From: a virus
Taxonomy: Duplodnaviria > Heunggongvirae > Uroviricota > Caudoviricetes
Strand: one strand, 5' to 3'
IMG/VR virus record: IMGVR_UViG_2909267149_000003
Length of the DNA stretch: 47,751 nucleotides
Of the stretch, positions 29,766 through 30,940 are shown one piece after another. The position numbers were made by a program, and so were the translations under genes. Below the pieces are notes generated by a model. That model saw nothing but the letters and a program-made list of their open reading frames with translations. It was not told the origin of the DNA and did no database searches. Within the stretch, counting starts at the first letter, position 1. Each line of letters opens with the position of its first letter.

Positions 29766-30104
29766 AACCCCCACCTCGCAGATGCGGGCGCTGTGTAATG
29801 GAAACAAAAAATGGCCACCAGCGGCCCGTAAAAAACACCCCGTCAAAAGCACCGGCATCCGCAGATGCCCTTTGCGTGGCGTGATTTGATGCGCGCCAGG
29901 TGTGGCGCAAAGAAATGAAATAAGACTTATCGAAAATTAAGGTTAATTTGATGATTTAAACCACTTCTGAAGCTTAGTAGTATGAACATGTCCCCAGAAG
30001 GGGCCAATACTTATTATTCTTCATGGACTTTGTCCCGCGGTCTTAATCCGACGACCGCGCTACTTTTCACCCTCTCGCAAATTGCTATCTAAAGGACGTT
30101 GTCC

Positions 30105-30137
30105 CACGAGTATTCCTGTATGCTCGTGTCTTTTTTT
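30105..30137 (+). terminator. plus-strand hairpin plus T-run (putative terminator)
   Basis: CACGAG-12 nt loop-CTCGTG followed by TCTTTTTTT; forms a face-to-face pair with the minus-strand terminator 20 bp away. Confidence 0.35.
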
Positions 30138-30152
30138 GTCCTGAGAAAGGAA

Positions 30153-30177
30153 TAAAAAAAACCGCCAGATATGGCGG
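30153..30177 (-). terminator. rho-independent terminator downstream of the tRNA pair
   Basis: Minus-strand CCGCCA-UAUC-UGGCGG hairpin followed by 8 U (plus-strand A-run 30153-30161). Confidence 0.6.
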
Positions 30178-30541
30178 TTGGTCAATGCAAGGGATGAATT
30201 TTTTAATTGTTATTAAACCGAGGCGTCGGGAGCCTCCCGAAGTATTCCGTGCTGCATGGATACTGTGGTTTCCCGCTAAACCGACTCTTTAAACCACCCT
30301 CGCACTGAGGAGCGCCTCTGTGGTGCTTTTACAACACCAAAATGATGCATCACCGACCCTGCCAGGAAATACAAAATCTCCACCGATAATGCACCATTCT
30401 GCTGCCGTAAAAAATTAGCACTGAGGCTACACCCGGCCTCAAATCATAGCCAGAGAACAGAATGCTTTTTCAAAACAACCTGCTCCCACGTAATAAAAAA
30501 ATACGCCAGTGCCGTAATACAATAAGGCTTGTTTTAAATGC

Positions 30542-30616
30542 TGGAGCGGGTAGCGGGAATCGAACCCGCATCATCAGCTTGGAAGGCTGAGGTAATAGCC
30601 ATTATACGATACCCGC
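30542..30616 (-). tRNA. tRNA-Gly (anticodon UCC)
   Basis: Hand-folded 75-nt cloverleaf: acceptor GCGGGUA/UACCCGC, anticodon stem UCAGC/GCUGA, loop CUUCCAA, T arm GCGGG-UUCGAUU-CCCGC, encoded CCA. As recalled it differs from host glyT essentially by one acceptor-stem pair. Confidence 0.85.
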
Positions 30617-30619
30617 ATA

Positions 30620-30695
30620 TGGTGCCGACTACCGGAATCGAACTGGTGACCTACTGATTACAAGTCAGTTGCTCTACCTACTGAGCTAAGTCGGC
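30620..30695 (-). tRNA. tRNA-Thr (anticodon UGU)
   Basis: Hand-folded 76-nt cloverleaf: acceptor GCCGACU/AGUCGGC, D stem GCUC/GAGC, anticodon stem ACUGA/UCAGU, loop CUUGUAA, T loop UUCGAUU, discriminator A, encoded CCA; one mismatch in the T stem. Confidence 0.75.
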
Positions 30696-30940
30696 ATTGG
30701 TTCTTCAGGGGAGCGATATCACCGAGCGATATCACCGAGCAAAGAAGAGTTCCCCCTCAGAACCGTTTTCGATGATACGATTTAATATTCCAATCGCAAC
30801 AACACTTTGCGTCAAGCTATGTAAATTTATTTATGTATTTTTATTTTATGTGAACATTTCACCTTCACTTAAAATATACGCGACAATATATAAACAAATT
30901 TATTTTGAAGGCAATATTAAATGTCGTTTCTTATATCACA

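Follow-up and report, generated by a model that had tools for sequence, protein, structure and literature searches.

Layout of the interval between the Q-like gene and the holin

The stretch analysed here, called the window throughout, comprises 47,751 nucleotides of DNA from a Caudoviricetes virus (IMG/VR record IMGVR_UViG_2909267149_000003). On its minus strand, the strand of the late genes, a tRNA-Thr(UGU) gene and a tRNA-Gly(UCC) gene are located between a Q-like late-gene regulator and an S21-type holin, an arrangement that a first-pass annotation had proposed and that ARAGORN and Pfam confirm. The tRNAs are separated from the holin by a gap of 776 bp (30541-29766), which that annotation took to be an empty cargo site or the remnant of lost cargo. 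We found the gap to be conserved, modular, strongly structured and non-coding, which does not fit an empty site. It reads as two convergent predicted small-RNA genes with insulating terminators, and we think it likely that the whole interval forms a moron, a self-contained cargo module with RNA genes only, in the late-operon leader of a Rac-like lambdoid prophage.

The gap had been estimated at about 680 bp, and this figure has to be revised given that the true holin start is at 29765, not 29858. The earlier lower boundary of 29859 derives from a 102-amino-acid open reading frame (ORF) that extends the holin upstream. We regard this extension (29766-29858, minus strand), which spans two terminator hairpins, as an artefact. 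The 71-amino-acid form (29550-29765, minus strand) is preferred because both the Pfam match (P21 holin S family, PF04971, 119.8 bits) and the annotations of relatives, as EssD, fit it. Its MKSM start is a possible dual-start motif, as in phage 21.

A scan for hairpins followed by a T-run, compared with shuffled sequence, found six terminator-like sites against 2.2 +/- 1.5 in shuffles. Among them are the terminators that had been described between Q and the tRNAs (30981-30950, minus strand) and after the tRNAs (30179-30160, minus strand), both close to where they had been placed, as well as the plus-strand hairpin with its T-run (30105-30128) that faces the latter. Terminators in this face-to-face orientation suggest the ends of two convergent small-RNA genes.

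The gap is present in 370 of 5426 complete Escherichia coli genomes (about 7%), at 81-99.7% identity. Phage vB_EcoS-683R6 has it as well, and the LT-IIb phage SerU-LTIIb contains two copies. Strains FDAARGOS_1058 and N51 carry this prophage at 99.8% identity. The gap is mosaic, with blocks that were swapped independently and joints near 30328, 30150 and 29920. Independent block exchange at fixed joints is expected of separate functional units. A 25-mer scan of genome contigs returned one species representative, Escherichia ruysiae, and is uninformative on spread beyond Escherichia. In some phages the cassette (tRNAs, small RNA and a holin fragment) is tandemly duplicated, as in SerU-LTIIb (L001 1100-4130) and upstream in loci L012 and L024. 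The LT-IIb toxin genes of SerU-LTIIb lie after the endolysin gene, outside the Q-to-holin gap.

A predicted late-strand RNA resembling STnc100

From tRNA-Gly to the terminator at 30179, the late strand folds with a z-score of -4.76 relative to shuffles. A consensus structure was obtained with RNAalifold from an alignment of 37 distinct variants, and all of its elements are on the minus strand. It starts with a long imperfect hairpin of about 84 nt (30328-30411), which has 34 pairs, many of them G.U, and compensatory change at two. No other block of the spacer is as well conserved as this hairpin in the BLAST-derived alignment A1, in which the apical stretch of the hairpin does not vary. The multi-helix core that follows (30220-30318) consists of a closing stem around four hairpins, one of them CGGGAGGCNCCCG. 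Pairs change in a compensatory manner within the closing stem, where 24 sequences have CG and 12 have UA, and within the hairpin that spans alignment columns 168-192. Next is an A/U-rich linker (30180-30219) with no pairs in the consensus fold. Its 5' end varies, a conserved UUGCAUUGACCAA stands directly before the terminator, and the linker is a candidate seed or chaperone-binding region. The RNA ends in an intrinsic terminator (30154-30179), an 8-pair stem followed by eight T, that is kept across the 37 variants and also in short variants.

The structure has 66 pairs, which are paired in 98.4% of cases; sliding the partners lowers this to 40-55%. The number of double-change cells is 33; shuffles gave 10.7 +/- 2.3, and none of the 500 reached this number. 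The strand of this RNA, like that of the plus-strand RNA described below, is fixed by conserved G.U pairs that exist on that strand only. The RNA occurs in 418 of the 5426 complete E. coli genomes and is never annotated as RNA. RNAalifold also pairs CAGUG (30421-30427) with CAUUG (30184-30190; A2 columns 5-9/251-255), a helix that would close the whole RNA; both sides are conserved with no covariation, and the pairing is unsupported.

Short variants (L006, L015, L028 and others; e.g., L006 2702-2801) are without a 95-nt multi-helix core and keep the long hairpin, the terminator and a 5' hairpin with a compensatory change from GGUG/CACC to GAUG/CAUC. Strain ATCC 8739 is one carrier of the short form. 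Copies of the late-strand RNA are found at 39 places on plasmids. One of them, on plasmid pE21845IncF (L104 2523-2717), lies beside a 'tRNA-OTHER' feature and insertion sequence (IS) elements, away from phage lysis genes.

A covariance model built from the window family (R1) has as its top match in phage 933W the STnc100 RNA, at the exact place and on the same strand (20.5 bits, with an E-value of about 3e-4 that is rough, as are all E-values from this model). In the opposite direction, the Rfam STnc100 model scores 933W STnc100 at 207.7 bits, PasD1 and PasD2 at 37.7 and 41.4 bits, and close relatives of the window RNA at 21.7-22.9 bits. The distance is bridged by an IncF-plasmid copy (103 bits with R1, 35.5 bits with Rfam STnc100) and by a chromosomal copy (102.8 and 27.3 bits). 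The position agrees as well. PasD1 and PasD2 of enteropathogenic E. coli (EPEC) E2348/69 are on the late strand between Q and the holin, and the window RNA takes the place typical of STnc100 and PasD, on the late strand, before the holin and ending in an intrinsic terminator. It further resembles them in length (about 180-200 nt) and plan, with a closing stem, several hairpins including CGGGAGGCNCCCG, an A/U-rich linker and a terminator, whereas its linker differs from the PasD seed UGUGAG. We suspect that the late-strand RNA is a distant relative in the STnc100/PasD superfamily, although it is not a member by the Rfam criterion. PasD1 and PasD2 are prophage small RNAs that are abundant, associate with Hfq and have many RIL-seq partners (PMC8550237), a preprint links PasD with STnc100 (10.64898/2026.05.13.724894), and STnc100 RNA was detected in vesicles of Shiga toxin-producing E. 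coli (STEC; PMC12370729).

Permissive Rfam scans of the gap for further known RNA families yielded matches below threshold only. We set aside mir-2063 and mir-983, which reflect the long hairpin only, and STnc240, AbsR28, suhB and isrK, which reflect the terminator.

Transcription probably continues past tRNA-Gly through the long hairpin (30411-30328) and the core (30318-30154) and stops at the terminator. Co-transcription with the tRNAs is suggested by the lack of both a convincing terminator after tRNA-Gly and a clear promoter for the RNA. The hairpin at 30442-30421 was considered as a tRNA terminator and rejected, its stem being lost in relatives (strain 144, 683R6) and its T-run displaced. 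No convincing sigma-54 or sigma-70 promoter was seen by eye inside the long hairpin. An extended -10-like sequence, TGTTGTAAA, resembles the -10 regions before PasD and 933W STnc100 and was discarded as too weak. We favour release of the small RNA when the tRNA 3' trailer is processed; alternatively, it may have a weak promoter of its own. A precedent for maturation from a tRNA 3' trailer is 3'ETS-leuZ, a small RNA reportedly matured from the trailer of a tRNA operon. The window RNA differs from it in being much larger, in having its own terminator and in that its co-transcription is something we infer.

A predicted plus-strand RNA

The opposite strand carries a promoter-like site (29955-29983, plus strand), with a -35 element TTTAAA (29955-29960), a 17-nt spacer and a -10 element TAGTAT (29978-29983). 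Both hexamers are kept while the spacer and the downstream sequence diverge (in locus L027 and in variants of the enterotoxigenic E. coli (ETEC) type). Beyond it lies a predicted small RNA of about 150 nt (~29989-30137, plus strand; the 5' end is an estimate), which starts with three hairpins and continues with an unpaired stretch, one small hairpin and the terminator (30105-30137). The folding z-score is -4.82. In 30 distinct sequences, its 27 pairs are 99% paired, compared with 32-47% when slid, and the 47 double-change cells exceed the 13.7 +/- 2.7 of the shuffles, none of which (0 of 500) reached that value. Compensatory changes occur in 7 of the 27 pairs, some of them in the terminator stem (30105-30128). 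The small plus-strand transcript at which the first-pass annotation had hinted is supported by conserved promoter hexamers and covarying helices.

This RNA is found in 368 of the 5426 genomes and, again, is never annotated as RNA; the sampled places are mostly featureless, with a few under a 'hypothetical protein'. There are two alternative 3' halves, in which the single-stranded sequence differs while the small hairpin and the terminator are shared. Alternative 3' halves on one architecture are a pattern typical of seed diversification. Exact complementary words of 9-12 nt between the single-stranded segments and the rest of the phage occur only at chance level.

A 786-nt search at E <= 10 gave no Rfam family for the plus-strand RNA, including AsxR (RF02703) and AgvB (RF02702). 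A model of the RNA itself (R2) returned nothing significant, missing AsxR in 933W as well as PasA and the Esr41-like sites, and homology to AsxR, PasA or Esr41 was rejected on this basis. What the plus-strand RNA has in common with AsxR/AgvB, PasA/PasC and Esr41 is its place, as a prophage small RNA antisense to the late operon in the Q-to-holin gap, and a 3' plan of a single-stranded stretch, a small hairpin and a terminator. However, it is two to three times longer than these RNAs, has three extra 5' hairpins and matches them in neither sequence nor structure. We consider it a candidate family, with no known family detectable, in the AsxR/AgvB position.

Absence of a coding signal

The earlier observation that the gap has no convincing ORF is borne out. 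Neither the short ORFs of the gap nor the 'hypothetical proteins' of relatives match a Pfam family. The variable columns are distributed over the three codon phases as 54/45/61 and 31/35/27 in the gap, against 13/5/34 in the holin used as a control, and single-nucleotide gaps are frequent in the alignments. With no Pfam match and no codon periodicity, protein cargo in the gap was rejected. In relatives, 'hypothetical protein' calls lie over the RNA genes (L005 2618-3016, L006 2619-2909, L003 3122-3247 and L002 4699-5016, with the RefSeq/GenBank identifiers WP_064226585.1, WP_001578250.1, WP_001298832.1 and URC09393.1), and two of them cross an intrinsic terminator. These calls are probably annotation artefacts.

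Synteny with phage 933W

The tRNAs had been likened in position to those of Stx phages, and a comparison of the Q-S region with that of the Stx phage 933W revealed the same plan. The order in 933W is Q, pR'/tR', pT, ileZ-argN-argO, stx2AB, STnc100 (plus strand), AsxR (minus strand) and, later, the holin. Both have Q, a tRNA array with a putative promoter, a late-strand STnc100-type RNA that faces an antisense RNA, and the holin. The 3' ends of STnc100 and AsxR in 933W are two bases apart (3483 and 3485), and those of the window RNAs, at about 30154 (minus strand) and 30137 (plus strand), are 16 nt apart. The window differs in its tRNAs, which are Thr(UGU) and Gly(UCC) instead of Ile/Arg/Arg, and in the absence of toxin genes from tRNA to RNA. 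Its late-strand RNA is highly diverged and has the long hairpin before the STnc100-like core, and its antisense partner is about 150 nt long with no detectable similarity to the 53-nt AsxR. Together, the two predicted RNAs would represent the convergent STnc100-AsxR layout of 933W without the toxin genes.

The tRNA cassette and its predicted promoter

As had been claimed, the two tRNA genes are complete and have an encoded CCA. ARAGORN calls tRNA-Thr with the anticodon tgt (30620-30695, minus strand; Rfam 73.8 bits) and tRNA-Gly with tcc (30542-30616, minus strand; 65.6 bits), the same anticodons as originally read, and both exceed the Rfam tRNA (RF00005) cutoff of 29 bits. Alignment to the host genes shows that tRNA-Thr is identical to E. 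coli K-12 thrU (76/76) and that tRNA-Gly matches K-12 glyT at 73/75 positions, the two changes together turning the acceptor-stem pair C6:G66 into U6:A66, so that pairing is preserved. By sequence, the pair are copies of host thrU and glyT. The pair itself is ordinary and is already annotated in hundreds of genomes. It has the Thr-then-Gly order and near-identical tRNAs of the host thrU-tyrU-glyT-thrT-tufB operon, but lacks tyrU and the 116-nt spacer, with a Thr-Gly separation of only 3 nt. It also lacks thrT and tufB, and its promoter and leader are unrelated to those of the host.

Codon use was counted in 48 long window ORFs: 27% of Thr codons are ACA, while 21% of Gly codons are GGA and 20.5% are GGG. 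Typical values for E. coli K-12 are about 13-14% for ACA, about 11% for GGA and about 15% for GGG. Because these codons are commoner in the phage genes than in typical E. coli, the pair, which decodes ACA and GGA/GGG, is consistent with codon supplementation, as is usual for phage tRNAs.

The tRNA in the Thr position is not always a tRNA-Thr. In seven related loci (L028 3480-3555, L042, L052 and others) it has the thrU scaffold with the anticodon UUU and two differences from the Thr tRNA (A26G and G35U). In copy a of SerU-LTIIb (L001 1122-1194), the anticodon is UCU and the gene is annotated as tRNA-Arg. This suggests that phage tRNA arrays switch identity via one or two point mutations.

A sigma-70-like promoter for the tRNAs is predicted at 30772-30799 (minus strand), with a -35 element TTGCGA, a 16-nt spacer and a -10 element TATCAT (9/12 in the scan). 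It lies between tR', the terminator past Q, and the tRNAs, and is preceded by an AT-rich tract of about 130 bp. We gathered about 90 related loci (from IMG/VR plus one GTDB genome) and grouped the sequences before the first tRNA in classes. In all classes, a good -35/-10 pair stands at a constant distance before the first tRNA, examples being TTGCTC-16-TATTAT, TTGAAA-16-TAATAT, TTGAAG-16-TATTAT, TTGAGC-17-TATTAT and TTGCAA-17-TATTAT. Such a pair is present even in cassettes that are downstream of a DNA methylase gene instead of Q. At the equivalent position, after two terminators, the 933W record has a 'pT; putative tRNA promoter' (TTGCAG-17-TATTAT).

Expression of the tRNAs had been judged probably Q-dependent. 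A sigma-70-like promoter past tR' that travels with the cassette across contexts, and has pT as its counterpart in 933W, does not agree with this, and because the predicted promoter accompanies the cassette in these other contexts, strict Q dependence is unlikely. The cassette looks autonomous, with Q read-through adding to expression and not being required for it. In this scenario, the tRNAs would be transcribed from the predicted promoter downstream of tR', probably already in the lysogen, and more strongly once Q-modified polymerase reads through.

Between promoter and tRNAs, a leader hairpin, GGUUCUGAGGGG...CCCCUGAAGAACC, can be read from the sequence (30699-30764, minus strand). It ends 4 nt before the 5' end of tRNA-Thr. 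By inspection, the stem is kept in other cassette classes with both arms changed (e.g., GGTTCCGAGGAG...CTCTTGAGGAACC), and it may be a processing or stability element of the tRNA precursor. The loop of the hairpin holds two tandem copies of the 13-nt sequence GCTCGGTGATATC (30740-30715, minus strand). This duplication is found in the window and a few near-identical loci, and most relatives have a single copy.

Alternative readings

Several points weigh against an RNA-only module. The plus-strand promoter-like site is weak (8/12, under the scan threshold). For the late-strand RNA, a good sigma-70 promoter is not visible. Rfam STnc100 aligns full-length over 30150-30345 at 19.8 bits, below its cutoff of 47, and R1 gives PasD1 and PasD2 only 5.1 and 7.4 bits, albeit correctly placed and oriented. 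STnc100 and PasD themselves have no established function. Homologs were mostly found by an exact 25-mer and are thus close relatives. By construction this 25-mer does not vary among them, although the block that contains it is also the most conserved one in alignment A1, and kinship alone can push values beyond the shuffle controls. AGA is also enriched in the phage genes and has no matching tRNA here. Searches of the literature for the tRNA cassette, for the LT-II phage and for exact sequence strings gave nothing relevant. Finally, promoter activity, co-transcription, processing, action in trans on host mRNAs and small RNAs, and codon supplementation are all steps that we infer.

The original interpretation, in which the tRNAs come solely from the Q-antiterminated transcript and the hairpins before the holin are leftovers in a cargo site that is empty or has decayed, nevertheless seems improbable to us. 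It can draw on the terminator between Q and the tRNAs, on the toxin genes that Stx phages have between tRNAs and small RNAs, and on the spacer deletions or replacements and PGAP 'hypothetical proteins' found there in some relatives. However, the promoter before the tRNAs is kept in several genomic contexts, and the spacer, with strand-defined covarying helices and no codon periodicity, is conserved in about 7% of E. coli genomes. The annotated ORFs run past an intrinsic terminator, and in the window stop codons interrupt them. That the gap encodes small proteins, either the 36-amino-acid plus-strand ORF at 29982-30092 or the 96- to 132-amino-acid 'hypothetical proteins' of relatives, is barely credible. 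Such ORFs are present and PGAP annotates some of them in relatives, but they match no family, indels of one nucleotide are frequent and there is no third-position bias. The 36-amino-acid ORF is not conserved, its ATG at 29982 being missing in ETEC-type variants, and the longer ORFs extend past the terminator and, in the window, contain stop codons. It is also unlikely, if less far-fetched, that the structures act in cis only, as terminators, insulators or RNase processing sites that mould the late transcript and protect the lysis genes, with no trans-acting RNA. Each unit does end in an intrinsic terminator, two more occur just before the holin, and the scan for complementary sites within the phage stayed at chance level. 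Nonetheless, a 100-nt multi-helix core with compensatory changes is unnecessary for termination, the conserved plus-strand hexamers imply a separate transcript, and the variable single-stranded segments by the terminators look like diversifying seeds. Furthermore, the relatives PasD1 and PasD2 are abundant and Hfq-associated (PMC8550237), and STnc100 is found in STEC vesicles (PMC12370729).

A different question is how the plus-strand RNA would act. It might be mainly a cis-antisense lock that pairs with the read-through late RNA, or whose transcription collides with that of the late strand, and so delays or damps the holin. Lambda OOP and P22 sar work comparably. Full complementarity to the late leader over 29989-30137, about 220 nt upstream of the holin start, speaks for such a lock, as does the convergence of plus-strand transcription on the late-strand unit. 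On the other hand, AsxR and AgvB, in the same position in Stx phages, are trans-acting anti-sRNAs (RNAs directed against small RNAs) in their Rfam descriptions and reportedly in experimental work too, and the alternative 3' halves suggest changing trans targets. The small RNA reportedly sponged is FnrS in the case of AsxR and GcvB in that of AgvB. We regard the lock as a doubtful main function, and it is compatible with a trans role too. A more extensive version of the RNA-only module, put forward here tentatively, is a mobile and evolvable RNA toolkit with a single transcription unit. That unit would run from the promoter through the leader hairpin, tRNAs and long hairpin to an STnc100-like RNA matured from the trailer. 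With a convergent anti-sRNA partner fixed beside it, the module would diversify by seed swaps and by single-base anticodon switches on one tRNA scaffold (Thr UGU to Lys UUU or Arg UCU). If this were true, a prophage could retune host decoding and post-transcriptional networks with no protein encoded.

Significance

Small RNAs by the lysis genes, such as AsxR, AgvB, PasA-D, Esr41 and STnc100, have mostly been studied in enterohaemorrhagic E. coli (EHEC) and EPEC. The window presents the convergent layout of an STnc100-like RNA and an antisense RNA fused to a tRNA cassette in a toxin-free Rac-like prophage, and both RNAs occur in about 7% of complete E. coli genomes, unannotated or under doubtful 'hypothetical protein' calls. 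What this analysis adds is that the supposedly empty site is probably a conserved module of RNA genes only, in which two small-RNA candidates had gone without annotation. If they are expressed, the STnc100/PasD superfamily would reach well below the current Rfam cutoff, a candidate new antisense family would be added, and the stx cargo site could be seen as an insertion into a pre-existing RNA module. The locus also provides a concrete case, on a mobile element, of a tRNA transcript that may give rise to a regulatory RNA by maturation.

Neighbouring features of the late region

The Q-like late-gene regulator (31061-31603, minus strand; 180 amino acids) matches mainly DUF1133 in Pfam (356.6 bits), and its match to Phage_antitermQ (PF06530) is barely over the cutoff (27.1 bits versus 26). 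Its counterpart in phage vB_EcoS-683R6 is annotated 'antitermination protein Q'. About 80 nt past its stop is the tR'-like intrinsic terminator (30940-30981, minus strand), with a 13-pair stem (30981-30950) and a T-run, which is kept in relatives. The region from the Q stop to tR' (30946-31012, minus strand) has a weak Rfam match to the Salmonella small RNA STnc370 (30.4 bits, cutoff 54). It may correspond to lambda 6S RNA or StxS, as the short transcript from pR' to tR'.

Two terminator-like hairpins are located just before the holin start (29803-29869, minus strand; scan sites 29869-29854 and 29826-29813) and are kept upstream of two unrelated holin types. The second is common to phiP27, cdtI and mEp460, and is a 'terminator' in the annotation of phage Ayreon. 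These hairpins may be insulators that bar Q-independent transcription from the lysis genes.

Past the holin, the order is a DUF1327 ORF, a lysozyme gene, an Rz-family gene, a TrkH-family transporter gene and, far beyond, an integrase gene. The TrkH-family potassium transporter gene (26268-27743, minus strand; 481 bits; TrkG in relatives) comes directly after the Rz gene, which is the arrangement of the K-12 Rac prophage, and is a second, protein-coding moron of the late region.

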